Origin: Anaerolineae bacterium | Lineage (GTDB): Bacteria; Chloroflexota; Anaerolineae; Aggregatilineales; Phototrophicaceae | Direction: 5' to 3' | NCBI GenBank assembly: GCA_019912985.1 | Contig: JAIOHN010000079.1 | Location: 1 to 60,275, forward strand | DNA: 60,275 nucleotides | In this document: in pieces, positions 17,079 through 57,628 of the stretch | How the letters are laid out: the number at the start of each line of letters is the position of its first letter | Numbering within the stretch: position 1 is the first letter of the stretch | The notes under the pieces: model-generated | What the model saw: the letters and a program-made list of their open reading frames with translations, nothing else | Database searches by the model: none | What the model was told of the DNA's origin: nothing | Program-made: the position numbers and the translations under genes

Positions 17079-17090
17079 GGCCATTTGGCG
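17079..17090. promoter_or_regulatory. motif copy GGCCATTTGGCG, 24 bp centre-to-centre upstream of 17103-17114
   Basis: Read directly. No TAnnnT at the 24-nt offset, so it may be an auxiliary site. Confidence 0.35.
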
Positions 17091-17102
17091 TGTCATCCGG
17101 GG

Positions 17103-17144
17103 CGCTATATAGCGCTAGGGAACAACGCTTGATTTATTTACACT
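17103..17144 (+). promoter_or_regulatory. palindrome CGCTATATAGCG + 24 nt + TACACT (putative promoter of 17239-17805)
   Basis: Palindrome 17103-17114, 24-nt spacer, hexamer 17139-17144. Same geometry as the other motif copies. Confidence 0.5.
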
Positions 17145-17238
17145 GAGTTTGTGTTGCGTTTCAAGCACACCCAGACAGTTGGAAGGCATAAAAGATGGAG
17201 ACTTCCCTGCCGATAGATTAATCGAAGGAGCAGATGCG

Positions 17239-17805
17239 ATGGCGAGCAATTTGGAACGGGCGTGGCGTTATCTGGATACGGATGTTGAACGCCAGGAACT
17301 CATTGACGATATCGCACAAGTGCGGCAGGCCATCCTGCACATCGTACAGTCCATTCCGCCCAGCCAATGGTACGAACCACGCTATCGTGGTCAGTCTCCG
17401 GCTGGGATGTTGGGATATTTGCATATGACGGATAATCTCGGATTGTGTGCCATTCGCCTGGCACTGGTCGGGATGCGCTTTTCCGTGCCTATGGGTCTAG
17501 CGGACCGACTCCACAATATCACGAGGCGCATTTTCAACCGCCGTCTGGTTGAAACCACTTTTTGCGATGTGAGTTATGACCAGCATAGGATCAGCGAGCT
17601 AATTATGCGCGCACCGGTGAATAAATTCACTGCCGAGACATACCACCCCCCGTCGAATACCTACCTCACCGTTGAGAGGGCGCTGCAGGAATACTTCCTG
17701 TTCCGCTGGCAAGATCACCTGGATATGATGCGCGAAGAGGAAGGCCTATTCTACGACCCACCAAAGAACGACCCGCCGACGAACCACTATAACCCGGTAT
17801 GGTGA
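17239..17805 (+). CDS. hypothetical protein (possibly a DinB-like helical bundle)
   Basis: GAAGGAG RBS before the ATG at 17239. The family assignment is weak. Confidence 0.45.
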   Translation: MASNLERAWRYLDTDVERQELIDDIAQVRQAILHIVQSIPPSQWYEPRYRGQSPAGMLGYLHMTDNLGLCAIRLALVGMRFSVPMGLADRLHNITRRIFNRRLVETTFCDVSYDQHRISELIMRAPVNKFTAETYHPPSNTYLTVERALQEYFLFRWQDHLDMMREEEGLFYDPPKNDPPTNHYNPVW

Positions 17806-17860
17806 GGTTGTGCCTTCGCACAATCAGCTTGCCGTGTAATGGTGTGGAGGTGAAAGCGAA

Positions 17861-19545: not shown

Positions 19546-19587
19546 CGCAGAATGGCGGATGTGTCTCATTCGGGCGGAGACTACACT
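19546..19587 (+). promoter_or_regulatory. half-degenerate motif CGCAGAATGGCG + 24 nt + TACACT (putative promoter of 19673-20294)
   Basis: Right arm TGGCG intact, spacer exactly 24 nt, hexamer 19582-19587. Confidence 0.45.
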
Positions 19588-19672: not shown

Positions 19673-19990
19673 ATGAAATTTCTGAAACGAGCGCAACTAC
19701 CCGGTTTGGACACGATGGGGATGGTGTTGTTGGTATGGATATGCGCCCTCCCATTCATCGGTTTGTTGATCGCGCCGGTATTTGGAACCGCTGCAGCGCT
19801 CGCCGCTGCCCTTGCTCTGCTAATCGTCCTACTATTGTTCTGTTGGGGAAGCTGTATTCCAGCAGCTATCCGTTTCTACAAGGCAGAGAAAAGAAAAACT
19901 GTTGTTTCAAGCGAAACATCTCATCATTCTTTGGGAGACACAAAACTAACCCAGGGATTTGGGAAAGGCAGCAAGCATCTTGAACGATAA
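19673..19990 (+). CDS. small membrane protein
   Basis: GAAGGA RBS. Two hydrophobic helices. The upstream part of ORF 19523 contains the putative promoter, so the later start is preferred. Confidence 0.5.
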   Translation: MKFLKRAQLPGLDTMGMVLLVWICALPFIGLLIAPVFGTAAALAAALALLIVLLLFCWGSCIPAAIRFYKAEKRKTVVSSETSHHSLGDTKLTQGFGKGSKHLER

Positions 19991-20294
19991 CATACAAGCG
20001 AAAGATACATTGGCAAGCGCCCTGGAGGAAGCAACGACGGTCTATTTGAGCGTCTGGAATATGGATTGTCCGGAATGTGCTCGTTTCCTGCACGAAGGCC
20101 TGTCGCAAATGCATGGGGTCGTGCTTCTGGAGGTGTTCTACAGGCAGGGAGTCGCTGTCGTGACTTATGATCCGGGGTTGATTGGTGTCCGCGACATCGT
20201 AGAGGCTGTAGCGCTGATCGGTAAGAATAGGTGCCACTATTATGGCGCAGAAATCATCGGCCAGAGTCCTGCCCGGCAAGCACTGCGGTTGTAG
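19959..20294 (+). CDS. HMA-fold heavy-metal-binding protein with MDCPEC motif
   Basis: YLSVWNMDCPECARFLHEGLSQMHGVVLLEVFYRQGVAVVTYDP fits the ferredoxin-like HMA pattern with a CxxC. The start is uncertain (TTG). Confidence 0.6.
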   Translation: MGKAASILNDNIQAKDTLASALEEATTVYLSVWNMDCPECARFLHEGLSQMHGVVLLEVFYRQGVAVVTYDPGLIGVRDIVEAVALIGKNRCHYYGAEIIGQSPARQALRL

Positions 20295-20931
20295 AAATGG
20301 AAACAATTTGCCGCCTTGTGGGTGCGCGAGGGTAGGGCGAACCATTTCTGTCATCCCTGCAAACCTCTTTTCGCGGCAGGGGGTCGCCCTTGGGAGGAGC
20401 CATGAAAATGTGGAGCGTTGCCCGATGAGACACCTGGGTATGGTGTGCCGATGATTTTCGACAACTCCCGTAGGCAAGGAGATGATGATCTGCTCAACCA
20501 CGCCGCTTTTGTCCTCATGTGTCTTGTCCAGCCGAACACTTGGTTTGTTGAAGAATGCACCCGGCGAGGCGTTCGCTGCTTCGACACCTCAGCCTGCTGC
20601 GAATTCCTCTCTCGGATTGAGAGGCTACACACAAAGGCCAGAGCGCCCGATCAACTGTCGTTTTGAGTAGTGTGAGGCTGGCACACTCAAGGCATGCATT
20701 CTCGCTATCGTCGGTGCGCGAATCGCCAGTCCAATACACTCGTCAAGGTAATTTTCAACACTGGTTGACAGGAGCAGACCAAAGTTAGCAGCAAAGCCGA
20801 ATAGTCCCGACTAACCTGGCCGCATGATGTGAGGCTTTGCAGGACACAAACACCACGCCGACTTGGCGCGAGTTTCTCTACGATTTGTCGATTCCTTTTT
20901 TATAACGTTACACCATTTCGGGGAGCTAAGT

Positions 20932-23772
20932 ATGAACGAACAGAAAGACATGATTTTGATCACCGGCACCAGCGGTCGAATTGGCTACCCGCTGGCGAAA
21001 CGTTTGTCGGAATCGTTTAATGTCGTCGGCTTTGACCGTCGTGCGCCGTCGCATCCCCCTCCAAGCGCCGAATGTCTGTATGTGGATCTAACGCTTGAAG
21101 AAAGTGTCCGTCGCGGACTGGAGTCTATCCGCGAGCTGCACGGCAACCGGATCGCATCCGTAATCCACCTTGCCGCTTATTATGACTTTTCGGGCGCGCC
21201 GAGTCCGCTCTATGAAGAGATCACGGTACGCGGCACCGAGCGCCTGCTGCGGATGCTCCAGGATTTCGAGGTTGAGCAGTTCATATTTTCCAGCACGGAC
21301 CTGGTGTACGCGCCCGCTGCACCTGGGCAACGCATCAACGAAGAGTCGCCGCTCGATCCCAGATGGCCCTATCCCAAGTCAAAGGTCGCAACCGAGAAGG
21401 TGATTCACGCCGAACGCGGGAACATTCCCGCGGTGATCCTACGCATCGCCGGCGTCTACGACGACCTGTGCGATTCGATCCCACTGGCACAGCAGATGCA
21501 GCGCATTTACGAACGCGACGTTACCGCATATCTCTTTCCAGGCGACATCTCCGCTGGCCGCCAGGCGTTCGTGCATAACGACGATGTGCTGGATGCCATT
21601 ATGCTGGCGGTGGCGCGCCGCCGCGAACTATCATCGGAAGTGACGCTGCTCATCGGCGAGTCTGAGTCGCCCAGTTATGACGAGTTGCAGCGTTCTTTTG
21701 GGCAGTTGATCCATGGCATGGAATGGAAGACGCGCTCCCTTCCCAAGCCAGTGGCTAAAGTAGGTGCGATTCTGCAGGAGACACTGCCGTTGGGCCGCCC
21801 ACCCTTTATTAAATCGTGGATGATTGACCTCGCCACTGACAATATCCAACTCGACATCACACGCGCGCGCGCCGTCCTGGGCTGGGAGCCTAAGCGCTCG
21901 CTGCTCGATACGCTGCCGAAAATGGCGTTGGCGCTCAAAGCCGATCCGCTCGCATGGTATCGCGAGAATGAGATCGAGCCGCCCCTGTGGCTGCGAGAGT
22001 TGGTGCCCATGGACGATCAGGCCGCCGAGATCGAGCCGCATGAATTGATGCAGTTGGGCGACCAGGTCCGGCAGATGATGGCCGCGCCCGCACCGATTCC
22101 GATGTCCGAGCTGCACCGGCACGAGATGATGGAGATGGGCGAGTCGAATGCTGGTGATATGGGCTCGATGAAGATGGATATGGGGCACTCGGAGGAGCAA
22201 GGCGAAGTCGCATCCAAAGCGCTGCAGCTCGAACAATTGCGGGGACAGCAGAGACGGTTGGAACGGGCGTATCAACGCGAAGTGGCGGCGCAAAAACAGG
22301 AGGATGCCAGGGCACGCGAGTTGATGGAGCGCGACCCGCACGCGCACGTCGAGATGATGAAGATGGCTCAACAGCATCGTCAGCTGGCGCTCGAACTCCC
22401 GCGTGTGCTGCTGCGGTATGAAACCCAGGTCTACCAGGCAATGCAAAATGCGCAGGAGAGGGCGCTCGCTCGGACACCCGATACCAGCCAGATGATGTGG
22501 CAGATGGTCGCCATGGCGCATTGGTCGCAAATTCCGCTGCTTGCGCTCGGCGCGTGGCTAATCGCCAGTCCATTTACGCTCGGCTATGACAGTGTGCCGC
22601 TGACCTGGAGCGACGTGATCAGCGGAATCTTGGTGATCGTGCTGGCGGTGATTGCTTTTCGCACGGGTCGTATCTGGGCCGCGGTAGCAAATACGTTCGT
22701 CGGCTTGTGGCTCCTGTTCGCCCCGCTTGCTTACTGGGCGCCGGACGCTGTCGCGTATGCAAATGATACGCTGGTCGGCACGCTGGTGATTGTGTTTGCC
22801 TTCATTGTTCCGATGTTGATGCAAATGCCTGGGCCCGAAGTGCCGCTCGGGTGGTCCTACAATCCCTCGACCTGGCCGCAGCGCGCCCCTATTCTTTTAT
22901 TCGCGCTGTTGAGCTTTCTCCTGGCGCGCTACATGGCGGCGTTCCAGTTGGGTCACATCGCCTGGGCGTGGGATCCGTTTTTCGGTGATGGCACAGTTCG
23001 GGTCCTTACTTCGAGCGTGTCGAAAGCCTTTCCCATCGCCGATGCCGGCTTGGGCGCGTTCACGTACCTGGTGGAACTCCTGTCGGGCTTCATGGGCGAC
23101 CCACGCCGCTGGCGCACAATGCCATGGATGGTGGCGCTCTTTGGCTTTATGGTCGTGCCGCTCGGCATCGTCAGCGTAATACTGATTATTTTACAGCCCG
23201 TAGCCGTCGGCGCGTGGTGTACGTTCTGTCTGCTATCCGCGCTCTTCATGCTGATTATGGTCGCGCTCTCACTCGACGAAGTGATCGCGATGCTCCAGTT
23301 TCTGCTGCAGACCCGCCGCGCGGGCAAATCTGTATGGCGCACTTTCTGGCTCGGCGGCAATGCCCTGGGCGATAGGCTGACACCGCGCCGCCCGGAGACA
23401 ACGCAGCCGTTCCAAATGTTCTGGGGCGCGACTGCGCCGTGGAATCTGCTTATCAGCGCAGCGCTCGGCGTCTGGTTAATGGCCGCGCCCTCAATTTTTC
23501 AGACCCAGGGACCGGCAGCCCACAGTGATCACATACTCGGCGCCCTGGTCGTAACGGTTTCCATTATCGCTTTTGCCGAAGTGGCGCGCGCGGCGCGGTT
23601 TATTAACATCCTGCTGGCCTTGGGCATAATCGCGCTACCCTGGCTGCTCGGCGGCGCAACGCCGACGTCGGGCATCAACGATCTGATCATTGGCGTGTTG
23701 ATCATCGCACTGAGCATCCCGCCAGGCAAAATTAAGAACACGTATGCCGGTTGGAATCCGTTTATTGTATGA
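20932..23772 (+). CDS. fusion protein: NAD-dependent epimerase/dehydratase (SDR) + Met/His-rich coiled region + SPW-repeat/VKOR-like membrane domain
   Basis: GGGAG RBS. N-terminus ILITGTSGRIGYPLAKRL...YPKSK (Rossmann plus YxxxK). Middle segment HRHEMMEMGESNAGDMGSMKMDMGHSEE and HAHVEMMKMAQQH. C-terminus has about 10 TM segments with SPW-like repeats (GAWLIASPFTLGY) and a VKOR-like CTFC in a TM helix. Confidence 0.75.
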   Translation: MNEQKDMILITGTSGRIGYPLAKRLSESFNVVGFDRRAPSHPPPSAECLYVDLTLEESVRRGLESIRELHGNRIASVIHLAAYYDFSGAPSPLYEEITVRGTERLLRMLQDFEVEQFIFSSTDLVYAPAAPGQRINEESPLDPRWPYPKSKVATEKVIHAERGNIPAVILRIAGVYDDLCDSIPLAQQMQRIYERDVTAYLFPGDISAGRQAFVHNDDVLDAIMLAVARRRELSSEVTLLIGESESPSYDELQRSFGQLIHGMEWKTRSLPKPVAKVGAILQETLPLGRPPFIKSWMIDLATDNIQLDITRARAVLGWEPKRSLLDTLPKMALALKADPLAWYRENEIEPPLWLRELVPMDDQAAEIEPHELMQLGDQVRQMMAAPAPIPMSELHRHEMMEMGESNAGDMGSMKMDMGHSEEQGEVASKALQLEQLRGQQRRLERAYQREVAAQKQEDARARELMERDPHAHVEMMKMAQQHRQLALELPRVLLRYETQVYQAMQNAQERALARTPDTSQMMWQMVAMAHWSQIPLLALGAWLIASPFTLGYDSVPLTWSDVISGILVIVLAVIAFRTGRIWAAVANTFVGLWLLFAPLAYWAPDAVAYANDTLVGTLVIVFAFIVPMLMQMPGPEVPLGWSYNPSTWPQRAPILLFALLSFLLARYMAAFQLGHIAWAWDPFFGDGTVRVLTSSVSKAFPIADAGLGAFTYLVELLSGFMGDPRRWRTMPWMVALFGFMVVPLGIVSVILIILQPVAVGAWCTFCLLSALFMLIMVALSLDEVIAMLQFLLQTRRAGKSVWRTFWLGGNALGDRLTPRRPETTQPFQMFWGATAPWNLLISAALGVWLMAAPSIFQTQGPAAHSDHILGALVVTVSIIAFAEVARAARFINILLALGIIALPWLLGGATPTSGINDLIIGVLIIALSIPPGKIKNTYAGWNPFIV

Positions 23773-24534: not shown

Positions 24535-24551
24535 GAAAAGGAGTCAAGCCA

Positions 24552-25454: not shown

Positions 25455-25680
25455 AGAACCTCTCGACTTTCTAAGATTTCGAAACGGATGCACAATGACG
25501 ATCAATTGCTTACTGATGAGCGAGTGCAAGGTCTAGCAGCGGAAGCAGATCACGTTACTGAGCCTTTTACTTGGCCGGTAACCATGGTAATGACAGAAGC
25601 GACAAAATAGTGCCTGCACAAGTGGCAGAGGCCTGGAAACCCGTTGGCAGCGTCCCCGCTAAACAGCGCACGCCGGCATG

Positions 25681-25723
25681 AGCCAAATAGCGCTCGTGGT
25701 GTTCATCCCAAGTGGCATACAAT
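25681..25723 (+). promoter_or_regulatory. motif copy AGCCAAATAGCG + 25 nt + TACAAT (putative promoter of the 25761-28076 operon)
   Basis: Read directly. The spacer is one nt longer than in the other copies. The hexamer lies 38 nt upstream of the GTG start. Confidence 0.45.
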
Positions 25724-26077: not shown

Positions 26078-26377
26078 ATGAACAAGGATTGCTACGTGGA
26101 TCCAATTCAAAAAACCGCTACCCGGGAAGAACGGGAATCGGTGAAGCAGATACTGCTCACCGTGCGGGGTATGGGATATTCCAACTGTGCCATACGTGTG
26201 CATAACAGTTTGGCTGCGCTCAAAGGTGTGATTAATGCCCATGTGGAATTTACCACGGAGACAGCCGAAGTGGAGTTCAATCCTCACATAGTCGCCATTC
26301 CAACGCTGATCGACGCGGTTGCTGAAGCAGGGCGCGATGGCCGACATGCATACAGCGCTGCCCTACTCATTGAGTGA
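26078..26377 (+). CDS. HMA-fold protein with degenerate metal motif (GMGYSNC)
   Basis: GGAGGAG RBS. ILLTVRGMGYSNCAIRVHNSLAALKGVINAHVEFTTETAEVEF keeps the HMA fold pattern, but the first Cys of GMTCxxC is replaced by Tyr. Confidence 0.6.
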   Translation: MNKDCYVDPIQKTATREERESVKQILLTVRGMGYSNCAIRVHNSLAALKGVINAHVEFTTETAEVEFNPHIVAIPTLIDAVAEAGRDGRHAYSAALLIE

Positions 26378-28076: not shown

Positions 28077-28113
28077 CCATAGGCTTCCCCGCTGAAACAC
28101 GCGGTTCTGTCTA

Positions 28114-46793: not shown

Positions 46794-46835
46794 AAATTAG
46801 CCTATTCTAATCGTGATGCCATGCGCCATTTGGCG
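46794..46835 (-). promoter_or_regulatory. palindrome CGCCATTTGGCG + 24 nt + TAATTT on the minus strand (putative promoter of the Ldt-sortase-FG-GAP operon)
   Basis: Palindrome 46824-46835. The minus-strand hexamer TAATTT corresponds to plus coordinates 46794-46799, about 115 nt upstream of the start at 46678. Confidence 0.5.
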
Positions 46836-48575: not shown

Positions 48576-48986
48576 CTACAGTGTGGTGATTACCTGCTGT
48601 AACCGAAGGTGAATGTCATCTGCAATAGCCTTGATTTTGGGTTTTTCTGTTATTTGCATTGTTACGCCCGGATCAAGAATTGTAATGCCCGTCGTGCCTA
48701 TGTGGCGATTTTCATAGACAATGACATTGCATAGCAACGGCAGACCAATCTCCGGCTCAGACTGAAGGGTCAGATAGGCCAGTACCGGGTTGCAGGCCCC
48801 GAGAATCGTGTATTTCTCAGTGTCAAGACCCAGATACTGGCTGAACATCGTCTGTACGTCAACCTGTGTGATGTAGCTCAAACCTTGTTCTCTTAGCGCT
48901 GCCTTGACCTTCGTAAGCGCCTCATCGTAGGGCAGATCCACACTCGTCCTTAGAAAGGAAGTACACTGTTGATCTGTCATCTGCAT
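48576..48986 (-). CDS. DUF302 domain protein (second copy)
   Basis: GLSYITQVDVQTMFSQYLGLDTEKYTILGACNPVLA...LLCNVIVYEN. Confidence 0.85.
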   Translation of the reverse strand: MQMTDQQCTSFLRTSVDLPYDEALTKVKAALREQGLSYITQVDVQTMFSQYLGLDTEKYTILGACNPVLAYLTLQSEPEIGLPLLCNVIVYENRHIGTTGITILDPGVTMQITEKPKIKAIADDIHLRLQQVITTL

Positions 48987-49001
48987 TTCCTTTTGAATTG
49001 T

Positions 49002-50111
49002 TCATACAGCAAGAGGTAACGTGAACAGAAAAGTACTGCCCTGTCCTGGCCCGGCACTTTCAGCCCAGAGTCTCCCATTGTGGGCACGGATTATCGCCTG
49101 CGAGATCGTCAGACCAATGCCGCTGCCACCGCTCGCACGAGCACGCGATTTGTCAACCCGATAGAACCGCAGAAAGATATGTTCCAGATCTTCAGCGGCC
49201 AAACCAATCCCTGTGTCGCGCACAAAGAATCGGACAGCCCCGCCGCGCAGTTCCCAACCAACCATGACCTGTCCCCCTGTAGGGGTATATTGCAGCGCAT
49301 TGCCAAGTAAATTGAGCAGGACCTGTCGAATGCGGTCATGATCCGCCAGAACGGTGACGGATTTATCTGGTAGATCGAGGCGCAGTTCAATGCCGCTATC
49401 TTCAAACTGAGGGTGTATCCACTGGCTGGTCGCTTTTACAAGTTCCGTCGCCTCACAAGGTACGATACTCAATTTGATCTGATCTGATTCTGCCCGCGAG
49501 AGTTCCTGTAAATCATGCACCAAACGCTGCAAACGCCCTGCCTCGCGCTGCACCTGCTCAAATGTCTCAGGTGTCGGCTCCATGACTCTATCCAGCAAGC
49601 CCTCCATGTAAGCTTGAATTCCTGCTAAAGGTGTTTTGAGTTCGTGACTGATGTCGGCGATGAGTTGTTGGCGAACGGCTTCAGTTTCAGCCAACGCAGC
49701 CGCCATCCGGTTGAAACTTCGCGTTAGATCACCCAGTTCATCTTCACTGTAAACCGGCAGACGCTCCTCGTAGTGACCGTTGGCGATACGCTCGCTGGCC
49801 CGTACAGCCTGCTGAATGGGCATGGCGATCCGTCGGGTAACGTAAGCGCTGACGATACCGGCGGCCACGGTTGCTGCTGCGGTAGCGATGAGCAATGTGC
49901 TGTTTATGGCCTGGCGGAAATTGTTGTTCAGCTCCAATTCAAGCTGCTCCATACCGGTACTCATCATCATAGAGGTCATCGTATCGCGCATACTCTCGAC
50001 ATGCTGGGCAAATGTCACAGGTGCAATTGAGAGCGTCGAAACCCCCATGACCAGCGCGCCAACCAGGATGACAACGAGATAAGATATGAACAATTTCCGG
50101 CCCAGACTCAT
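49002..50111 (-). CDS. sensor histidine kinase (HAMP, HisKA, HATPase_c)
   Basis: H-box LIADISHELKTPLA, N-box LLGNALQYT, G-box GSGIGLTIS. 4-nt overlap with the regulator gene. Confidence 0.9.
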   Translation of the reverse strand: MSLGRKLFISYLVVILVGALVMGVSTLSIAPVTFAQHVESMRDTMTSMMMSTGMEQLELELNNNFRQAINSTLLIATAAATVAAGIVSAYVTRRIAMPIQQAVRASERIANGHYEERLPVYSEDELGDLTRSFNRMAAALAETEAVRQQLIADISHELKTPLAGIQAYMEGLLDRVMEPTPETFEQVQREAGRLQRLVHDLQELSRAESDQIKLSIVPCEATELVKATSQWIHPQFEDSGIELRLDLPDKSVTVLADHDRIRQVLLNLLGNALQYTPTGGQVMVGWELRGGAVRFFVRDTGIGLAAEDLEHIFLRFYRVDKSRARASGGSGIGLTISQAIIRAHNGRLWAESAGPGQGSTFLFTLPLAV

Positions 50112-50800
50112 AACAACTCATCCTCGAACCTATAACCTACACCGCGCACTGTCTGGACAAACTGCGGCTCGGCGGGGTTTGTTTCCAGCTTTTGTCGAAT
50201 GCGCCCAATATGCACATCAACTACGCGCTCGTCACCGTAGAAGTCATAGCCCCACACTTTTTCGAGAAGCTGCGCCCGGCTGAGCACCATCCCCGGATAG
50301 GTCGCCAGTGTCTTGAGCAGTTCAAATTCCAGGGCAGTCAGGTCGATATCCTCATCGTCGCGCCAGACTTGATGGCGCTGGCTGTCGATACGAATGTGGG
50401 CAAAATTCAAGTTGCTTGACTCGGCGGCTGCGTTGCGGTCGCGGCGAAGAATGGCTTTGACACGCGCCACCAACTCACGCGGGCTGAACGGTTTGGTCAC
50501 GTAATCATCTGCACCGATCGTCAGGCCCACAATGCGATCGGTCTCTTCCGATTTCGCCGTCAACATCAGGACATAGGCATCGGATTCTCGACGGATATGT
50601 TGCAGCACTTCGAAGCCATCCATGCCAGGCAGCATGACATCCAGAATCACGAGTTGAGGTTTATAGCGCTGGAATACCCGCAGTGCCTGTTGACCATCCG
50701 TCGCTGTGCGAACGGTATAGCCCTCAGCTTCTAAGTAAGCGATGACGGGTTTACGGATACTCTCTTCGTCATCGACAACCAGAATTGTTGTCATCGTCAC
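50108..50800 (-). CDS. OmpR-family response regulator
   Basis: ILVVDDEESIR...LVILDVMLPGMDG...KPF plus winged helix LTALEFELLKTL...VQTVRGVGYRF. Confidence 0.9.
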   Translation of the reverse strand: MTMTTILVVDDEESIRKPVIAYLEAEGYTVRTATDGQQALRVFQRYKPQLVILDVMLPGMDGFEVLQHIRRESDAYVLMLTAKSEETDRIVGLTIGADDYVTKPFSPRELVARVKAILRRDRNAAAESSNLNFAHIRIDSQRHQVWRDDEDIDLTALEFELLKTLATYPGMVLSRAQLLEKVWGYDFYGDERVVDVHIGRIRQKLETNPAEPQFVQTVRGVGYRFEDELL

Positions 50801-50821
50801 CTTACCCGAATTTGTCCAAAG

Positions 50822-51922
50822 TCAACGATAGTCGCCGGAACTATGTACGTAGACGTAATTGACCTTCTCAACCTCTGGATCAGGCCCTGCAGAACCCATC
50901 CACTCGAAAATGAAGCGCGCATCGCTGATGCTCATATTGACACAGCCCCGGCTCTGGCGATAACCAAACAAATCATGCCAGTACGTCCCATGCAGGCTGA
51001 TAGCCTCATCGAAATACTGTACCCAGGGCACACTTTGCAGCGCATAAGCGTTGGGTGCGCCAGTTGCGCCCGACATGCCGTCACGCTCCAATCGCGCCCA
51101 GATTGTGAAAAGGTCCTGATTCGTATCTGTACCGGGTAGACCGCTGGAAATCAACGTGGCAAAGATGGGTTTATCCTCCTCGTAGGCAACGAGATTCTGC
51201 TCAAAAAGATCCACAGCAGCCCAGCGGCCAGCAACATTACGCGGGCGTGTGATCTGTTGAGCGATAGACAGATAGCGCTGGTTCACCCACTGATCTGGGC
51301 CAATCATATACCAGATCCAACCGTCATCACCTGGCGCTTCGGCAAAGATGTTGACCCGCTCATAGCGTAGGGGCACGCGACCGGTGGCAGGTGATGGTGG
51401 GCCACCAGGATACTCAGATGTGTAGATACCGGTTTTGTCTAGAACCCAGGCAAACGGGTGGTCCAGACCATAGGGTAACCGGACTCCTCGAAAGTAGGAG
51501 GGTTCAGTGAACTCAGCGACGGTCCGGGCTAGCCAGTGTCCCCCCTCGATTTGGAGCCAGTCTTCGATGCTGGTGTCGAGCGCTCGGACGAAGTTAAAAC
51601 CGGCAGGGTACTGTCCAACGACGTTGCCACCGGGGGCATCAAACAGATTCGTTGCCTCTGGGCCGATTCGCCAAAAACTGTAGGTGCTAAGAGTGGACAG
51701 ATCAGGAGCGATTTCCTCGACAGGCGGTTCAGGGAAGGCGTTGATCATTGCCACGCATTCCTGACTGAGCGCACCATCCCCGACCCGACCAGAGCATACC
51801 GTCGGATCATACACGAGTTTTGCAGGCTCAAGTGAGCCGACTTCAAGAAGAAACAGCATAACAGCGCCTGTCCCCATGTCTCGAAGGAATTCGCGCCGAG
51901 AGCGTATATTTATATCTGTCAT
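50822..51922 (-). CDS. L,D-transpeptidase (YkuD) with Tat-type signal
   Basis: SRREFLRDMGTGAVMLF twin-arginine signal. ISLHGTYWHDLFGYRQSRGCVNMS active-site block. Confidence 0.85.
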   Translation of the reverse strand: MTDINIRSRREFLRDMGTGAVMLFLLEVGSLEPAKLVYDPTVCSGRVGDGALSQECVAMINAFPEPPVEEIAPDLSTLSTYSFWRIGPEATNLFDAPGGNVVGQYPAGFNFVRALDTSIEDWLQIEGGHWLARTVAEFTEPSYFRGVRLPYGLDHPFAWVLDKTGIYTSEYPGGPPSPATGRVPLRYERVNIFAEAPGDDGWIWYMIGPDQWVNQRYLSIAQQITRPRNVAGRWAAVDLFEQNLVAYEEDKPIFATLISSGLPGTDTNQDLFTIWARLERDGMSGATGAPNAYALQSVPWVQYFDEAISLHGTYWHDLFGYRQSRGCVNMSISDARFIFEWMGSAGPDPEVEKVNYVYVHSSGDYR

Positions 51923-51969
51923 TTACAACCTGTACCATTCAATTTACTGACAACAGATGCCGGGAAAGC

Positions 51970-52545
51970 TTACCTCTCTGTCACCAACAGATCATCAATG
52001 ATCGCATCGAGCTGTCCTTCCTGGACCGGTGCAATGATAAGGTCGACGATGTTGCCAGCCTGGTCAATGACGAACGTTTCGGGTACACCAGTGATCCGGT
52101 AGTCCTCGGAAATGCGGGTTCCAACATCCGGGCCGTTGGGATAGGTGATGCCAAATTCGTCAATGAATGCCAGCGAATTGCTCTCGGTATCCGCATAAGC
52201 GATCCCCACCAGCACGACCCCGCGATCACGATACCGTTCCCACATGCTTTGCAGGATGGGCGCTTCATCCCGGCAGGGTACGCACCAGCTTGCCCAGAAG
52301 TTGACCACCACGACTTTGCCCCGCTGCGCTCCAAACCGGAAGATTTCGCCATTGAAGGTGGTCAGTGTAAATTCAGGGGCTGGCCCGGTTTCGGGTTGCG
52401 TTTGAAGCTGCCGCGCCAGGGCGATACCTATGATCAATACAATCACGACAAGCGCACCGATCAGGAGAACTGATCCCGGACTAAAACCACTTTGAGTGGA
52501 TCTTGGTTCTTCAAGTAAATCCTGGGCAACGAGGTCTTGCGACAT
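51970..52545 (-). CDS. TlpA/ResA-like thiol-disulfide oxidoreductase
   Basis: AGGAGG RBS before the internal ATG. TM anchor. FWASWCVPC thioredoxin motif. Confidence 0.85.
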   Translation of the reverse strand: MSQDLVAQDLLEEPRSTQSGFSPGSVLLIGALVVIVLIIGIALARQLQTQPETGPAPEFTLTTFNGEIFRFGAQRGKVVVVNFWASWCVPCRDEAPILQSMWERYRDRGVVLVGIAYADTESNSLAFIDEFGITYPNGPDVGTRISEDYRITGVPETFVIDQAGNIVDLIIAPVQEGQLDAIIDDLLVTER

Positions 52546-52559
52546 ATAAACCTCCTGGG

Positions 52560-53351
52560 TTATACGTGTGTCAACGCGCGCCCGCTTAGGTACCCAATAT
52601 AGGCCGGAACCAGGGGCAATACACACGGCGACAGGAAGGACAACAGACCCGCAAGAAAAGCGACCAGATAGGTCGGTGTACCGGCTGCACCCATAGGCAG
52701 GTCAAGATAGAGGCCGTTCTGCTGCGCCCAGATGGCAATCAACGTCATCTGATTCGTGAGTAACATAACCCCGATCACGATGAGTAACAGCCCACTGGCA
52801 AGCTGGAACTTTCGCAGATGGCGGCGAAATCGTTCGATAAAGCGTAGCGCCCGCTCCAGTCCAAAGCCAATCAGAAGAAACGGAGATCCCAGGCCTAACG
52901 CATAACCACTGGTTAAGAGCATGGCCTGCCCTGCGCTGCCCTCACTGAAGCCTAATGTCAGGATTGCCCCTAGTGTTGTCCCGATACAGGGTGTCCAACC
53001 AGCGGCAAAGAACACACCCATCAGCATTGACGATGCCAAATTCGTAGTCTGCTCTCCCCGCCACTGAGGGCGCGTGTCGTAGTAGAGCCAGGGGATTCGC
53101 AGCAGGCCCAGATTCACCAGTCCAAACACAATGATGACGATGCCGCCAGCACGGGCAATCTCAGCCTTGTACTCGCGGAATAACTGACCCAGTACGGTTG
53201 CTGCACCGCCCCAGCCCACGATAAAGATGAGTGAAAACCCAAGGACAAAGCATACGGCGTGAGCCATCATGATCCAGCGGCTTGTCACTATTTTCGACCT
53301 TGTAGCTGATGCAACCTCGCGTGTCATTGACCTGATCTCCCCATCGATCAT
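52560..53351 (-). CDS. ccdA: cytochrome c biogenesis / disulfide-reductant transporter CcdA (DsbD TM-domain family)
   Basis: Conserved Cys-containing helices FLSPCVLPLVPAY and WTPCIGTTLG. 4-nt overlap with the upstream gene. Confidence 0.85.
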   Translation of the reverse strand: MIDGEIRSMTREVASATRSKIVTSRWIMMAHAVCFVLGFSLIFIVGWGGAATVLGQLFREYKAEIARAGGIVIIVFGLVNLGLLRIPWLYYDTRPQWRGEQTTNLASSMLMGVFFAAGWTPCIGTTLGAILTLGFSEGSAGQAMLLTSGYALGLGSPFLLIGFGLERALRFIERFRRHLRKFQLASGLLLIVIGVMLLTNQMTLIAIWAQQNGLYLDLPMGAAGTPTYLVAFLAGLLSFLSPCVLPLVPAYIGYLSGRALTHV

Positions 53352-53944
53352 CCTGGTACATTCTCTGGCGCACGATTGCCGTGCCGGAGCACAAAGTTGA
53401 TTAACTCGTCGGCATTCAACTCCTCAATCGTTAAGAGGCGAGTCCAGGCTGCTGCTGCGACCCGGCTGTCGTTCTGAGGTCGATTGGTAACGACAACCCT
53501 GCCTGGAAAGCGCTGCTGTACCTGAGTGAGGACGTTTATCGCCTCCTGATCTCCGGAATCTCGATAAGAAAGCCAGACGTGCCCGTGCTCCAGATTGTGG
53601 ATCAGACTCATGTCGGGAACGATTTCAGTGTAAACACCTGTTCGGATCGACTGGGTGTGTGGTCCTGATGTCGGGGGATTAGAATTATATAGGAGTGGTT
53701 GTTGACCAGGCTCGAGATGTTCCGTCCCCTGACTAGGGAAGGCAATGCTATTGTCCGGTATCTCCGTGCTCAGTTCAGGCGGGCGATTCAGAGCACTGTT
53801 CAATGCAATCACGCCCACAATCAAAACTGATGCCAGGATCGAACCACCGATGACCACACGATCCATCGTCAGATACTGACCCAGTCGAGCGTTAATACCA
53901 CTGGAAGTTCGCTTACGCCGCTTCAATGTTGATCCTCTGCTCAT
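53348..53944 (-). CDS. DUF3105 domain protein (membrane anchored)
   Basis: YNSNPPTSGPH...LIHNLEHGHVWLSY...AAAWTRLL. Confidence 0.75.
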   Translation of the reverse strand: MSRGSTLKRRKRTSSGINARLGQYLTMDRVVIGGSILASVLIVGVIALNSALNRPPELSTEIPDNSIAFPSQGTEHLEPGQQPLLYNSNPPTSGPHTQSIRTGVYTEIVPDMSLIHNLEHGHVWLSYRDSGDQEAINVLTQVQQRFPGRVVVTNRPQNDSRVAAAAWTRLLTIEELNADELINFVLRHGNRAPENVPG

Positions 53945-53958
53945 CTTGTCCTTTCCTT

Positions 53959-54612
53959 CTATGCCAAGATTTTATGAACATATTCCGCGATTTGTTCGCC
54001 CCGCATCGCACCGATGTGTTTGTCACTGATCTTGCCGTCCGGGGTAACAAAAATGCTCGTCGGCACACCCATCACTCGATACAAGCCATCTGTCACGCCG
54101 TTGTCCGTATCTAGAAGAACGGGAAAAGGTAGATTGTATTCCTCCACGAAGGCTTGCACATCCTCAATCGTATCCTGGGCCGTCATGTTGACCGCCAGTA
54201 CCATGAAACCCTCCGCCTTGTAAGTCTCATAGGTCAGGCGAAGCAATGGCATTTCTTCGCGGCAGGGGCCGCACCATGTTGCCCAGAAATTAATCAGCAG
54301 AGGCTGACCACGAAAATCAGACAGTGTCAGATCGCCTCCCCCAAGACTTGGTAGCACAAAATCAGGAGCAATTTCTCCAACCTGTGGACCAAAGCTTGCG
54401 CTATCTGCAATCGTTGTCGTCGCCAGTTCATTGCCTTGTAAGTAGTTTGTCGGTCTTGTGGGCTTCGCCAATTCTGTGCCTGGCATCAGGAGGATTATTA
54501 TCAACAACGCTGCCGTAAATCCCAATGTGGTGCCCAAAAACATCAATTTCAGCCGAAGGCGAGTTCTATTCGATATGTTCATATGAGGTCCGAATAACTT
54601 AGCATCATCCAT
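53959..54612 (-). CDS. TlpA-like thiol-disulfide oxidoreductase (second copy)
   Basis: TM anchor. FWATWCGPC motif. VLAVNM...GVPTSIFV. Confidence 0.85.
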   Translation of the reverse strand: MDDAKLFGPHMNISNRTRLRLKLMFLGTTLGFTAALLIIILLMPGTELAKPTRPTNYLQGNELATTTIADSASFGPQVGEIAPDFVLPSLGGGDLTLSDFRGQPLLINFWATWCGPCREEMPLLRLTYETYKAEGFMVLAVNMTAQDTIEDVQAFVEEYNLPFPVLLDTDNGVTDGLYRVMGVPTSIFVTPDGKISDKHIGAMRGEQIAEYVHKILA

Positions 54613-54645
54613 CCCTACAGCCTGATATGCTATGTACCTTGTCGG

Positions 54646-55599
54646 TCAGCCGATTTGCTGCCATGTCAGTCCATCATCCCTCGTAACGTAGATACGTCTC
54701 CTCGATGTCGCGAGAGCAATTTCGTCACGAACCGGATTGACCGCGATATAAGAGAAGAATTCACCCTCACTCAGGTCAGGACCTGGCAATGGCTCAGTCT
54801 GGCGGCTCTCAAGCCCATAGCGGTAAAGCTGTTGAAAACCAAAGTAAAGCTCATCGCCCATCTCCGGGTCAAATGCAACCATAGTTGCTCGTCCACCTTC
54901 ATCAAGAGGGCTAAAATCGTCGCCGTAGTTTGAGGACATAAAAACACCCGCATCGGTCGCCGCAGCCAAACGAGATATCTCGTAAGGATGAACAGCAAGT
55001 TGGACTGGGGCAGCGGCCAGGCCTCTGGTTCCACTTTGCTGCCAGGTAAGTCCCTCGTCCAAGCTGTAATGCAGCCCTCTGGATAGAGAACTGGTTTCAT
55101 CGGGAATGAATGCGAAAAGCATAAAACTTCGATAGCCAGCTGCCAGTATTTCAATGACGAGATCATCTGTATATTTCACGGGTGTAAGTGTGGCCCCATC
55201 ATCGGTACTGCGGGAGATTCCAAGCAGTCCCTCAGAACTGATGTCGGGATCACGATAACCACTCGTGAAAAAACCATTGTTGATTCCGGCAAATCCGCGA
55301 TAATCGTGATTGGCCCCATCAGGGATACGCCACTGATTATCTGCATAAACCCGCAGACCCTCGGAAGTGGCAACATACAGACTGCGTCCATCACTGGTGT
55401 AACTCAAGCCATGAATAGACGAAAACCTGAGTGGTGTTTCACCAATTCTGCGGCTGGCAAGCCACTGCGCGGAAACAGCGACCATCACAACAATTCCAAG
55501 GGTAAAAACGACTACGTATATAAAATGCCTTAACGATTTTCGTCGAAACTGCGCCTCACGCTTTCGGACAGCACATTTCATTATGACCAAGAGCCTCAC
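54646..55599 (-). CDS. membrane-anchored beta-propeller protein (BNR/Ycf48-like, F510_1955-like)
   Basis: N-terminal TM. Repeated S.DGG.TW-like units (STDDGATL, SLDEGLTWQQ, TRDDGLTWQQ). Confidence 0.6.
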   Translation of the reverse strand: MRLLVIMKCAVRKREAQFRRKSLRHFIYVVVFTLGIVVMVAVSAQWLASRRIGETPLRFSSIHGLSYTSDGRSLYVATSEGLRVYADNQWRIPDGANHDYRGFAGINNGFFTSGYRDPDISSEGLLGISRSTDDGATLTPVKYTDDLVIEILAAGYRSFMLFAFIPDETSSLSRGLHYSLDEGLTWQQSGTRGLAAAPVQLAVHPYEISRLAAATDAGVFMSSNYGDDFSPLDEGGRATMVAFDPEMGDELYFGFQQLYRYGLESRQTEPLPGPDLSEGEFFSYIAVNPVRDEIALATSRRRIYVTRDDGLTWQQIG

Positions 55600-55736: not shown

Positions 55737-55808
55737 ATGATAGATGGGAGAAGAGGGTACAGAATGCGCTATTTGGCGGGTTTCAGATTAGAACCTGGTA
55801 AATAGATT
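55737..55808. promoter_or_regulatory. palindrome CGCTATTTGGCG flanked at 24 nt on both sides by TAnnnT hexamers (TATCAT minus strand, TAGATT plus strand)
   Basis: Palindrome 55767-55778. Minus-strand hexamer at plus coordinates 55737-55742. Plus-strand hexamer at 55803-55808. Confidence 0.5.
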
Positions 55809-55822
55809 AGACGTCCGTCTAA
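55807..55822. other. perfect 7-2-7 palindrome TTAGACG-TC-CGTCTAA abutting the stop codon of the kinase gene
   Basis: Read directly. The 2-nt centre excludes a full hairpin. It could be a weak stem-loop or a protein-binding site. Confidence 0.4.
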
Positions 55823-55823
55823 C

Positions 55824-56882
55824 TTATGTAGCGCTTGCTTCCAGTTGAAGATACGTCTCTGGATCGCTTTGAAAAGCGCCCTGACACACTGGACAGCAGA
55901 AGTAGTAAGTCTGATTCAGGTAGAGCGCACTGGCATAGGCTTGATGTGGTTCAATTATTGTGCTGCACACCGGATCACGAACCGAATTGGGCGGTTGATG
56001 GCGGTCATCTTCGGGTAGAAAAATGGTGATAGTGGTCCCGGAATCTTTCTGGCTCCTGACGTTGACAGTGCCATCGAGGTGCTGAACTCGTTCATGAATA
56101 CCCAGTAATCCATAATGACCATCAGTTGCCAGTGCGCCCACATGTTTGGGTGGGACAAAGCCCTCACCGTTGTCGCTGACGATCAGGCGAACACCATTCG
56201 GCTCGTAGACAACTTTGATGTCCACCCGTGTCGCATGGCCGTGACGACAGGCGTTGATGAGTGCTTCCTGGGCACTGCGGAACAACGCCAGTTCATGGGA
56301 TTCATCCAATCGTCGTTCCGTCCCTTCGACCGCAATCGACACCGGGAAGCTAGCGTGTTTATCCGCCTGAAGCCGTAACGCTGCCACCAGCCCTAATTCA
56401 TTCAGGGCTGGTGGTCGCAAGTCGCCGATCAGATCCCGCAGTTCAGCGATGGTGTCCAGTGACTGTTTGCGCGCCTCTACCAGGGTTGTGATGGCGTGTT
56501 CAGGATCGCTTTTGACCCACTTCTGTGCCATATCCATGCTCCAGGCAATCGCCACCAATGACTGGATGGTCTGGTCATGCAGTTCGCGTGCGATGCGGGC
56601 GCGTTCGGCCTCCTGTCCATTGGCTAGCTCCTCAGCGTACACAAAGCTGTGTTCCTGGGAACGGCGAACATGCCGTACCATGCCAGCCATTGAGCGGCGG
56701 AGCGCATCAATCTCGGCAATACCTCCACAGGGCTTATCCAATGCTCCAAAATCGCCTTGTGTGATCTGACTGGCTTGCGAACACAGTCGGCGCAGGGGAT
56801 TCACAATCCGGTGGAAAACCCAGATATGGCTTGCCAACAGCGCAACCAGGACAACCCCACACAACTCGAGCAAATCACTCAC
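55824..56882 (-). CDS. NarL-partner (HisKA_3) sensor histidine kinase with C-terminal YHS/TRASH domain
   Basis: One TM, HAMP-like linker, ERARIARELHDQTIQSL H-box, HATPase_c (DNGEGF, GLLGIHERV). C-terminal DPVCSTIIEPHQAYASALYLNQTYYFCCPVCQGAFQSDPETY. Confidence 0.8.
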   Translation of the reverse strand: MSDLLELCGVVLVALLASHIWVFHRIVNPLRRLCSQASQITQGDFGALDKPCGGIAEIDALRRSMAGMVRHVRRSQEHSFVYAEELANGQEAERARIARELHDQTIQSLVAIAWSMDMAQKWVKSDPEHAITTLVEARKQSLDTIAELRDLIGDLRPPALNELGLVAALRLQADKHASFPVSIAVEGTERRLDESHELALFRSAQEALINACRHGHATRVDIKVVYEPNGVRLIVSDNGEGFVPPKHVGALATDGHYGLLGIHERVQHLDGTVNVRSQKDSGTTITIFLPEDDRHQPPNSVRDPVCSTIIEPHQAYASALYLNQTYYFCCPVCQGAFQSDPETYLQLEASAT

Positions 56883-57523
56883 ACCGCCTCTCCTTCATCC
56901 AGGGTGATCAGGCTGTATTTGAGCGCTAGAGCAACGGCTTCGGTACGAGTGGTTACGCCCAGTTTCTGGTAAATATTTTTCAGGTGACCTTGTACGGTGC
57001 GGTCCGAAATGAATAAGATATTGCCGATTTCCTTGTTCGTCAGGCCATAGCCGGCCTGTTTTAATACCTGAATCTCGCGATCAGTCAAGCCCTCAACCAG
57101 GATCTGCATGTCCTGTTGATGGTGGGCGGCCCTTTCGAGCGTCTGAGCGTCAAACGCTTTCCGGCCAACCGCGACTTCCTGAAGCGCCTTCAAGAGTTCG
57201 GCAAGCTCCGCCGTTTTGAGCACAAACCCATCGGCCCCGGCATCGAGCAAAGCGTGGATATACGATGGCTCATCATAGGCCGTGAGGACGAGCACCCGGA
57301 TATCGTCGTTTTCGTGGCGAATACGCCGGGTGGCCTCTACACCGGTGAGTTCGGGCAGGTGAATATCCATAATGACCACATCCGGCTGGAGTTCACGGGA
57401 CAGAGAGACTCCCTCGCGCCCGTTGGTGGCTTCGCCGATCACCTCAATGCCCTCGCTTTCGAGGTAGAGCCGTGTACCCTGACGCACCACCTTGTGATCT
57501 TCGACCAGCAGCACCCTGATCAT
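56879..57523 (-). CDS. NarL/LuxR-family response regulator
   Basis: Start at MIRVLLVEDH. Receiver domain plus LTDREIQVLKQAGYGLTNKEIGNILFISDRTVQGHLKNIYQKLGV. 4-nt overlap with the kinase gene. Confidence 0.9.
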   Translation of the reverse strand: MIRVLLVEDHKVVRQGTRLYLESEGIEVIGEATNGREGVSLSRELQPDVVIMDIHLPELTGVEATRRIRHENDDIRVLVLTAYDEPSYIHALLDAGADGFVLKTAELAELLKALQEVAVGRKAFDAQTLERAAHHQQDMQILVEGLTDREIQVLKQAGYGLTNKEIGNILFISDRTVQGHLKNIYQKLGVTTRTEAVALALKYSLITLDEGEAV

Positions 57524-57556
57524 GCCGGCGTCCCTTTCGCTATGTTCCTTACATAT

Positions 57557-57628
57557 AACATAGCAGAAGAAGTTGACTTCAGAACCCGCCAAATGGCGCA
57601 TATGCGCGTAACTCATTCCTTATATACT
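57557..57628. promoter_or_regulatory. palindrome CGCCAAATGGCG flanked symmetrically at 24 nt by TATGTT (minus strand) and TATACT (plus strand): divergent promoter pair
   Basis: Palindrome 57587-57598. Minus-strand hexamer at plus coordinates 57557-57562, 34 nt upstream of the regulator ATG. Plus-strand hexamer at 57623-57628, facing copZ. Confidence 0.55.

Follow-up and report, generated by a model that had tools for sequence, protein, structure and literature searches.

A palindrome at a fixed distance from -10 hexamers marks a predicted autoregulated, probably copper-responsive two-component regulon in Anaerolineae

The well-known copper control systems of bacteria employ OmpR-type regulators and periplasmic sensing; the kinases of CusRS, CopRS and PcoRS sense periplasmic Cu/Ag, and these autoregulated pairs control genes for copper export, copper chaperones and copper oxidases. 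To our knowledge, hardly any promoters or regulons have been defined in the Anaerolineae, an abundant and mostly uncultured class of the Chloroflexota. Here we describe a recurrent palindrome, CGCCA-WW-TGGCG, in a 60,275-nucleotide contig of an Anaerolineae bacterium (GenBank assembly GCA_019912985.1, contig JAIOHN010000079.1; hereafter the window, meaning this whole stretch), where it lies between the copper chaperone gene copZ and an operon encoding a NarL/FixJ-family response regulator and a histidine kinase with a YHS domain, and also precedes further operons. A 19-kb contig identical to part of the window bears the label Aggregatilineales, genus GCA-2702065, which agrees with this placement. 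An initial annotation, made from the window alone, had proposed the palindrome as the operator of an island-wide regulon. Comparison with other genomes supports a regulon but not its limitation to an island: it is clade-wide in Anaerolineae, often with several paralogous copies per genome.

Among described activators, those of the CRP/FNR/NtcA group acting in the class II position at -41.5 resemble the present case in that a dimeric activator occupies a palindrome in place of the -35 element, the distance to the -10 hexamer being fixed. Their sites consist of 5-bp half-sites 6-8 bp apart within a 22-bp site, whereas the half-sites here are separated by 2 bp. DosR recognises a palindrome with a 2-bp A/T centre (GGGACTTTAGTCCC) beside the -35 region, often as tandem boxes, and is autoregulated. 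In Escherichia coli, NarL activates the yeaR promoter when bound to a single site, centred at -43.5, and the ogt promoter through two, at -44.5 and -77.5; the complex of NarL with polymerase has the alpha C-terminal domain in the minor groove, at the centre of the site (PMC10853779). With NarL and its kinase NarX the Anaerolineae system shares a GerE/LuxR-type helix-turn-helix regulator, a HisKA_3 kinase, and an inverted repeat with 2 bp between the half-sites and an A/T-rich centre (PMC10853779). Relative to the predicted hexamer, the single site here would be centred 1-2 bp from the -43.5 position of NarL at yeaR; as at ogt, some promoters carry a second upstream site, and the -35 element is weak or absent. 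The two systems differ in recognition sequence (CGCCA-WW-TGGCG here vs TACYYMT-NN-AKRRGTA), in the separation of tandem sites (24-26 bp vs 33 bp at ogt) and in the symmetric, bidirectional use of one site, which is common here. They would also differ in signal, NarX sensing periplasmic nitrate and the kinase described here probably sensing copper through a cytoplasmic YHS domain.

The independent material comprised 485 kb from about 30 other Anaerolineae genomes, as syntenic and homologous loci fetched via the kinase gene; a same-strain contig (L001, 99.98% identical to the window) has no footprinting power. At 51 exact sites in these genomes, considered in both directions, a TAnnnT hexamer begins 24 nt from the core in 51 of 102 orientations and 25 nt from it in a further 20, whereas every other offset from 0 to 49 yields 0-6 hexamers, about 2 on average. 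At 46 of the 51 sites a hexamer is present on at least one side, and at 26 on both. Sites with one mismatch show the same offset peak (17 matches from 24 sites); in them, position 4 tolerates C-to-T and position 9 G-to-A, and positions 1 and 12 as well as the centre also admit changes. Among functional-looking copies, the C-to-T exchange at position 4 is the most frequent. Exact sites avoid genes: 9 of 53 fall inside any open reading frame (ORF) of at least 120 amino acids, against 86% of bases (P = 1e-29), so the equal frequency within genes that the initial annotation had considered was not seen in these loci, as distinct from whole genomes. The first ORF usually starts 25-40 nt past the hexamer.

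These figures reproduce, in independent genomes, the fixed 24/25-nt geometry first noted in the window, where all of the sites and sequences quoted in the initial annotation were found: 17103 (CGCTATATAGCG), 19546 (CGCAGAATGGCG), 25681 (AGCCAAATAGCG), 28114, 46824, 55767 (CGCTATTTGGCG) and 57587, together with three 19-mers ATGCGC(C/T)ATTTGGCGGGTT at 46821, at 55764 and on the reverse strand of 57583-57601. Within the window, the 22 orientations of 11 sites include 8 with TAnnnT at exactly 24 nt, as had been claimed, and one, at 25681, with TAnnnT at 25 nt. Because intergenic TAnnnT occurs at 1.0% per position, 0.23 hits would be expected (binomial P = 3e-11, before ascertainment), and the claimed excess over chance holds. 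A chance origin of the palindrome-hexamer architecture is ruled out by its replication in independent genomes.

The genomic context of the site is equally consistent. An exact 12-mer is located about 720-780 nt 5' of the kinase start, directly 5' of the regulator gene, in almost every Anaerolineae locus, and lies about 70-100 nt 5' of the orthologous regulator gene in nearly all of them. A metagenome scan for the bidirectional architecture, based on DNA only, returned 74 matches, in 26 of which a regulator orthologue (69-82% identical) and/or copZ flanks the site and points outward; the other 48, a number close to a rough advance estimate of about 60 chance matches, are mostly low-GC contigs with unrelated extended palindromes. 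The arrangement at 57587 in the window, one operator between two predicted divergent promoters, recurs in 17 genome loci and in 26 of the metagenome contigs, and several genomes hold paired paralogous systems that have the operator in common (L009 with L003, L013 with L016, L015 with L056 and L029 with L030).

Alignment of 67 promoters, all from genomes other than that of the window, places the core within a palindrome of about 22 bp, A-n-A-Y-R-CGCCA-WW-TGGCG-Y-R-T-n-T, with the TAnnnT hexamer 24 or 25 nt downstream of the core. The half-sites A-Y-R-CGCCA and TGGCG-Y-R-T are inverted with WW between them, the layout of a NarL-type 7-2-7 operator. The only conserved flanking bases are mirror images of each other and belong to the palindrome, and the remainder of the spacer has an information content of about 0, in agreement with the original remark that the spacers lack a common -35 element. 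A G at -14, a partial extended -10 element, is present in 39 of the 67 promoters (58%). Since the centre of the palindrome lies 30 bp, sometimes 31 bp, 5' of the first hexamer base, the operator centre is implied to fall near -42.5/-43.5, with the hexamer at its usual position of -12 to -7 or -13 to -8. The class-II-activator position proposed in the initial annotation is retained as a prediction, while its analogy to CRP/FNR/NtcA is not: the half-site spacing differs, and NarL, with its 7-2-7 site at -43.5, appears to be the better analogue. A regulon of the CRP/FNR family can be set aside on this 2-bp spacing and because a scan of approximately 70 window ORF translations gave no CRP-family or cNMP-binding domain. 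At some promoters the sites are arranged in tandem, 24-26 bp apart (window 12296/12320, 17079/17103 and 25657/25681; L005 2818/2844; L089 3482/3507), at some loci with a strong distal site 5' of a weak proximal one. At bidirectional sites, two divergent -10 hexamers are separated by 60-62 bp; because the site is symmetric, one dimer would often serve two divergent promoters.

The response regulator encoded next to the strongest window site (56879-57523, minus strand) contains Response_reg (Pfam, 3e-30) and GerE (9.5e-19) domains, both above cut-offs. It aligns over its full length with the VraR, DevR and NarL structures, and its closest solved structures by sequence are those of VraR (E = 5e-40), DevR (3e-31), LiaR and NarL. 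It belongs to no named equivalog among NarL, NarP, MctR, MadR and others, its best NCBIfam scores being 134-151 bits against cut-offs of 250-343, far under both the NarL and the NarP thresholds. Orthologues 62-86% identical are present in every motif-bearing Anaerolineae locus. The kinase gene (55824-56882, minus strand) shares 4 nt (56879-56882) with the end of the regulator gene, at its stop codon, and encodes HAMP, HisKA_3 (1.8e-18) and HATPase_c (1.9e-13) domains and a C-terminal, TRASH-like YHS domain (Pfam, 33.1 bits vs a cut-off of 30.3). As judged by eye, its N-terminus has one hydrophobic stretch, likely a transmembrane helix, and, in alignment A1 (14 sequences, 52-94% identity), no space for a periplasmic domain. 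Four cysteines of the YHS domain, Cys306, Cys329, Cys330 and Cys333 (DPVC...YFCCPVCQ), are invariant in the same alignment. Homologues of the kinase with E below 1e-20 number 818 and are nearly all annotated as Chloroflexota or Anaerolineae.

Several observations connect this regulator to the palindrome. Its gene is the commonest one directly 3' of a site (17 times), and in three more loci it follows a site-bearing PMT_2 membrane gene. Because the site is conserved directly upstream of its own gene, the regulator, which the initial annotation had named as a candidate, would be an autoregulated binder. The Anaerolineae orthologues share the recognition helix TVQGHLK, whereas homologues in the Chloroflexales (48-54% identical) have TVQNHLA and no motif; the helix residues that differ presumably align with the base-contacting Val189 and Lys192 of NarL. 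The positions that would align with the base-contacting Lys188 and Val189 of NarL are Gln and Gly in the present regulator, with Lys192 kept. An orphan YHS-kinase paralogue (L006/L007 10001-11056; 52% identical) has no adjacent response regulator, unrelated metabolic neighbours and no operator nearby, and this absence of both regulator and site was counted in favour of their link. Taken together, the palindrome is most likely the operator of the NarL-type regulator at 56879-57523.

In the Chloroflexales loci L034-L047, which hold homologous pairs of YHS kinase and regulator, the CGCCA-WW-TGGCG architecture was not found and the regions upstream of the regulator contain no clear common palindrome. 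A variant operator was sought there and not found: GCCR-N2/3/4-YGGC cores give no TAnnnT peak at any offset. A few of these upstream regions contain GGCCA-N2/3-TGGCC-like palindromes at inconsistent spacing.

The identity of the signal is suggested by what the sites precede. Copper is proposed as the signal because the regulon content is dominated by copper genes, and cytoplasmic Cu(I) sensing is the simplest reading because the kinase combines a lack of space for a periplasmic domain with four invariant YHS cysteines and copper genes in its regulon. The kinase would in this case be a cytoplasmic metal sensor, Cu(I) binding by its YHS domain being suggested by the regulon. Such an arrangement departs from the described systems in various ways. 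The regulators of CusRS, CopRS and PcoRS are of the OmpR/PhoB family, while that described here has a GerE domain and no Trans_reg_C; the heavy-metal kinase model TIGR01386 (cztS/silS/copS) gives the present kinase 15.8 bits (E = 0.005) against a cut-off of 292.55, and CusRS/CopRS-type membership was rejected on these two features. DosR, VraR and LiaR differ in operator sequence, signal and regulon, and the kinases DosS/DosT (GAF-haem) and VraS/LiaS (intramembrane sensing) have no YHS domain. In the open-access literature we found no paper containing either 12-mer motif, in line with the earlier statement that no described operator was recognised; no paper there places a YHS-domain histidine kinase in a copper context, the TRASH domain and histidine kinases appear together only in one unrelated paper, and nothing relevant was found on copper two-component systems of Chloroflexota/Chloroflexi. 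The proposed mechanism resembles the established NarL-type activation pattern and, more loosely, the DosR boxes, and the YHS-kinase sensor and the frequent single-site bidirectional promoters might represent new variants.

The alternative that fares best, although unlikely, is that another transcription factor, such as a nearby OmpR-type regulator or a factor encoded elsewhere, binds the palindrome and that the NarL-type regulator is a mere member of the regulon. In 20 of 30 loci an OmpR-family regulator is encoded no more than 10 kb away, so that by co-occurrence alone an OmpR-type protein could be the binder, and some OmpR-family copper regulators, CusR for example, are reported to recognise inverted repeats. 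No site, however, belongs to the OmpR-type gene itself, which is found within operons that lie downstream of the NarL-type system; its product scores as MtrA/RpaB/WalR-like, under the heavy-metal subfamily cut-off; and in the full-length loci L016 and L030 sites occur where an OmpR-type gene is missing. Moreover, 5-bp half-sites 2 bp apart suit dimers of the GerE type, as in the NarL 7-2-7 operator. Genes for CsoR and BlaI/CopY-type repressors each occur in 2 of 30 motif-bearing loci, too rarely for a CsoR- or CopY-controlled operon, and csoR, where present, is itself 3' of a site.

It is less probable still that the NarL-type regulator binds but mainly represses, or acts as a dual switch. The direction of regulation is not readable from sequence, the G at -14 in 58% of promoters could allow some activator-independent activity, and at bidirectional sites two polymerases would compete for one region. 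The position of the palindrome nevertheless argues for activation: it is wholly upstream of the would-be -35 region and overlaps neither the -10 hexamer nor the start site, there is no -35 element to occlude, and NarL activates from an equivalent position; the rigid 24/25-nt phasing fits a protein-polymerase contact, whereas simple occlusion needs none. Finally, a TGGCG half serving as an unusual -35-like element of an alternative sigma factor is very improbable. The motif does consist of two blocks at fixed spacing, with four of the six bases of TTGGCG agreeing with TTGACA, but a 24-nt spacer goes well beyond the range known for the sigma-70 family; complete two-fold symmetry with mirrored flanks, used both ways at half of the sites, is more than a sigma element would call for; and no sigma factor gene is among the first genes after sites (full gene content having been read for few loci only).

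Several points weigh against a copper-responsive NarL-type regulon and temper its acceptance. The loci were fetched through the kinase gene, so part of the co-occurrence of sites with the two-component genes follows from the sampling; the metagenome scan alone started from DNA, and the bidirectional pattern sought in it favours the regulator-copZ pair. In Phototrophicus methaneseepsis, 7-8 sites are present in one 21-kb locus, and an orthologous regulator and kinase have not been established there. Metal binding by the YHS domain is assumed from family annotation and conserved cysteines, and all promoter positions are given relative to predicted -10 hexamers. Some of the window sites are weak (19546, 17103, 12320 and 25657), and the regions upstream of the type II glyceraldehyde-3-phosphate dehydrogenase gene (gapII) in L165, L167 and L089 cannot be aligned with that of the window and are without a site.

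With these points considered, an autoregulated, probably copper-responsive two-component regulon with class-II-like activation appears likely as a full mechanistic account; the binding protein, the activation, the transcription starts and copper as the signal are what we infer in it from sequence. The kinase would sense metal, most likely cytoplasmic Cu(I) on the YHS cysteines, and phosphorylate the regulator, a dimer of which would bind the 7-2-7-like inverted repeat A-Y-R-CGCCA-WW-TGGCG-Y-R-T, centred 30 bp 5' of the first base of TAnnnT and thus near -42.5/-43.5. Because a -35 element is missing, the predicted promoters would depend on the bound dimer for recruitment of RNA polymerase, and one dimer on a symmetric site would often drive two divergent promoters. 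The regulon would be autoregulated and would cover copper export and chaperoning (copA, copZ, HMA proteins, multicopper oxidase, DUF305, csoR) and thiol-disulfide and envelope enzymes (TlpA, CcdA, DUF3105, L,D-transpeptidases, sortase, M23 peptidase), with type II glyceraldehyde-3-phosphate dehydrogenase (GAPDH) and phosphoenolpyruvate carboxykinase (PEPCK) as an addition in this lineage.

In the window, about 86% of which is coding, exact copies of CGCCA-WW-TGGCG start at 12296, 28114, 46824 and 57587, all intergenic; copies with one mismatch start at 17079 and 55767, both intergenic, and at 13224, which is coding. A position weight matrix trained only on the other genomes was used to grade the window sites and finds six matches of at least 15 bits (17079 included), against 0.07 expected. 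By this measure 57587, 55767, 46824, 28114 and 12296, at 20-28 bits, are predicted to be strong. The highest score, 28.1 bits, belongs to the putative bidirectional operator gaaccCGCCAAATGGCGcatat (57587-57598), which has TAnnnT 24 nt off on both sides. On the minus strand, the predicted -10 hexamer TATGTT (57557-57562) would serve the regulator-kinase operon, the regulator ATG at 57523 coming 33 nt later; on the plus strand, TATACT (57623-57628) is directed at copZ, which in this lineage starts 285 nt downstream and in other genera 37-39 nt past the hexamer. The insert ahead of copZ (57629-57913) contains a 63-amino-acid ORF (57701-57892) with no Pfam match and an internal TACAAT; the 285-nt leader folds marginally better than shuffled sequence (z = -2.0) and has no Rfam match. 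An RNA explanation was checked for the window as a whole, which has no Rfam family at the gathering threshold.

Just 3' of the kinase gene, the predicted operator CGCTATTTGGCG (55767-55778; 26.1 bits) carries one tolerated mismatch, C-to-T at position 4, and is kept in L003; its minus-strand hexamer TATCAT (55737-55742) would serve an operon headed by a BNR-like gene. On the plus strand, TAGATT at 55803 points into the kinase gene from its 3' end and reads TAGATC in a 90%-identical relative, and is probably fortuitous as a promoter. The generalisation that every hexamer faces a correctly oriented gene 30-130 nt downstream fails at this point, and copZ (57914-58123) lies 285 nt from its hexamer. 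The exact operator at 46824-46835 (25.2 bits), conserved in L003 at 20044, has the candidate -10 hexamer TAATTT (46794-46799, minus strand) before an operon for an L,D-transpeptidase, a sortase and an FG-GAP protein (46678 down to 41757). The exact operator at 28114-28125 (23.7 bits) lies 5' of the genes for type II GAPDH and PEPCK, with TAAGGT (28150-28155, plus strand) as its predicted hexamer, followed by gapII (28202-29263) and pckA (29298-30899). At the orthologous position in P. methaneseepsis, the flanks, the spacing and TAAGGT are kept, and the core has two mismatches.

A tandem pair at 25657-25692 consists of a degenerate distal member, CGCTAAACAGCG (25657-25668), and a proximal one, AGCCAAATAGCG (25681-25692; 11.1 bits), which is separated by a 25-nt spacer from the candidate hexamer TACAAT (25718-25723, plus strand); the operon that follows encodes a 97-amino-acid protein, an HMA protein (26078-26377), a 353-amino-acid protein and a small YHS protein (27505-27681). 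In P. methaneseepsis the 25681 variant, the 25-nt spacer and the hexamer are identical and stand before the orthologous operon, the whole block from the distal 25657 site through TACAAT being conserved while the flanks have diverged; variant and spacer are identical at L166 7587. This predicted promoter is graded as weak but conserved. A second pair, at 17079-17114, joins distal GGCCATTTGGCG (17079-17090; 17.7 bits) to proximal CGCTATATAGCG (17103-17114; -1.5 bits alone), with TACACT (17139-17144) 24 nt past the latter and a gene ATG at 17239; the 17103 site has the right geometry but no orthologous locus was found for it, and it is graded as a weak candidate. A third, at 12296-12331, combines an exact distal site (12296-12307; 20.0 bits) with a degenerate proximal one, CGCTGAATGACG (12320-12331; 6.4 bits), 24 nt past which TAGCTT (12356-12361) precedes a DUF2933 gene (ATG 12383). 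The single site CGCAGAATGGCG at 19546-19557 (9.3 bits), with TACACT (19582-19587) 24 nt on, lies before genes for a small membrane protein and an HMA protein (19959-20294); its mismatches are not of a commonly tolerated type and no orthologous locus was found, and it is a plausible, weak candidate operator.

Four copies had been set apart originally as weak or orphan. Two of them, 12296 and 17079, are no orphans but distal members of tandem pairs, each followed 24 bp on by a degenerate proximal site and then TAnnnT; no hexamer supports 47104 or 24493. Of the weight-matrix matches, 4055, 13224, 35249 and 47104 were rejected as promoter operators, as was 24493 from the initial annotation, each being coding or without a hexamer at 24/25 nt. 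Phylogenetic footprinting, which had been recommended, supported the 25681 block in P. methaneseepsis but found no orthologous locus for 17103 and 19546. The sites at 17-25 kb were also approached through orthologues of a nearby epimerase-SPW-VKOR fusion gene, whose closest homologue is only 80% identical; the loci L088 and L090 lack sites, and L089 has them only before BNR and multicopper oxidase genes. Degenerate partners of full operators at 24-bp spacing (distal at 25650-25668 and 28083-28101, proximal at 12320) have in common a CCCCGCT(A/G)AA-like stretch, of which the 25650 copy is conserved in P. methaneseepsis and a looser form, CCCCACGCTGAA, is found at 12313 (12313-12331); it may be a half-site variant for cooperative binding.

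Counted over exact sites, the first gene downstream is most often the response regulator (17), copZ (13) or copA (13), followed by L,D-transpeptidases (3) and PMT_2 membrane glycosyltransferases (3); csoR, multicopper oxidase, M23 peptidase, BlaI/CopY-type repressor, cytochrome c and FIMAH protein genes occur twice each, and singletons include BNR-like, DUF2085, DUF1573, DUF305 and FG-GAP proteins. The links drawn originally to copper, thiol-disulfide and envelope functions are borne out by this content, while that to gluconeogenic genes extends, for gapII, to two genomes only. In the window itself, copZ (57914-58123, plus strand) encodes a 69-amino-acid HMA copper chaperone (Pfam HMA, 3.3e-14; NCBIfam copper ion binding and CopZ models), and copA runs on the minus strand from 58633 to the window end, as identified in Pfam/NCBIfam scans. 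The tightly spaced operon at 48576-55599 (minus strand) comprises, by Pfam and NCBIfam, genes for a BNR/Sortilin-like protein, TlpA, DUF3105, CcdA, a second TlpA, an L,D-transpeptidase, an OmpR-type regulator, a kinase and DUF302; its synteny is kept in L002-L004, and a BNR homologue is also the first gene after a site in L010 and L166. In addition to the HMA proteins at 19959-20294 and 26078-26377 and the small YHS protein at 27505-27681, the plus strand encodes the DUF2933 protein at 12383-12646. The 21-kb locus of P. methaneseepsis has sites before its HMA/YHS operon, gapII, a BNR-like gene and genes for a multicopper oxidase, DUF305 and a MacB-type transporter.

Type II (archaeal-type) GAPDH is encoded inside copper islands in four genomes (the window; L089 11264-12331; L165 10001-11068; L166 10001-11638) and is 82-91% conserved across Anaerolineae; the gene for ATP-dependent PEPCK, pckA, adjoins it in the window, and P. 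methaneseepsis retains a pckA fragment. Only two gapII genes follow a site, that of the window and, behind a degenerate copy, that of P. methaneseepsis; the link between gapII and the operator is lineage-restricted to these two genomes. As a speculation, gapII in copper islands could serve as a backup for a copper-sensitive cysteine enzyme.

In L003 (5333-5626 and 5673) and L005 (5575-5922 and 5908), csoR and copA are transcribed away from a shared operator that has a hexamer on either side; copA would then answer to both a two-component activator and the CsoR repressor, provided that the predicted -10 elements are correct. A two-component system of the MtrA/WalR-like OmpR type is located downstream in the operon of the NarL-type system or of a target (window 49002-50800; L005 11072-12861), which hints at a cascade from copper sensing to envelope control. 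A second OmpR-type system (32889-36666), for which the heavy-metal subfamily is the top NCBIfam match but below cut-off, adjoins genes for SPFH proteins and for a cation-diffusion-facilitator/SPFH fusion; it lacks an operator and probably forms a metal circuit of its own. The epimerase-SPW-VKOR fusion, a protein of about 950 amino acids that joins an NAD-dependent epimerase, SPW repeats and VKOR (window 20863-23772; L088 10001-12883; L089 6586-9516; L090 10001-12835), has more than 1200 homologues, also in Gemmatimonadota, and stands among copper, HMA or DUF302 genes in 4 of 4 loci with no operator before it. For the 17-28 kb part of the window, no close counterpart was present among the protein homologues found (best 80% identical; the 90%-identical relative was not among them). 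A phage-type integrase, several transposases and a resolvase border copper islands (L003 57-1124 and 4933-5229; L166 1-2174 and 5885-7231; L165 15705-17453), which suggests that the islands, operators included, may be mobile.

Copper inhibits L,D-transpeptidases, and the predicted regulon connects copper defence with L,D-transpeptidases, sortase and thiol-disulfide enzymes. A broader reading is possible, if somewhat doubtful: the YHS kinase would represent an unrecognised class of cytoplasmic Cu(I) sensors that, with its NarL-type partner, runs an Anaerolineae-wide copper-stress programme from symmetric bidirectional promoters served by one dimer, coupling copper export to the reinforcement or replacement of copper-vulnerable cysteine enzymes (L,D-transpeptidases, sortase, thiol-disulfide oxidoreductases and type II GAPDH). 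The analysis provides a candidate operator defined at the sequence level, together with its promoter architecture and predicted regulon, all met with repeatedly in dozens of Anaerolineae genomes, and the same sites in the cultured P. methaneseepsis make the system experimentally approachable. For the Anaerolineae, these features point to a previously unreported route of copper sensing, in which a NarL-family regulator would act with a kinase that carries a cytoplasmic YHS sensor.

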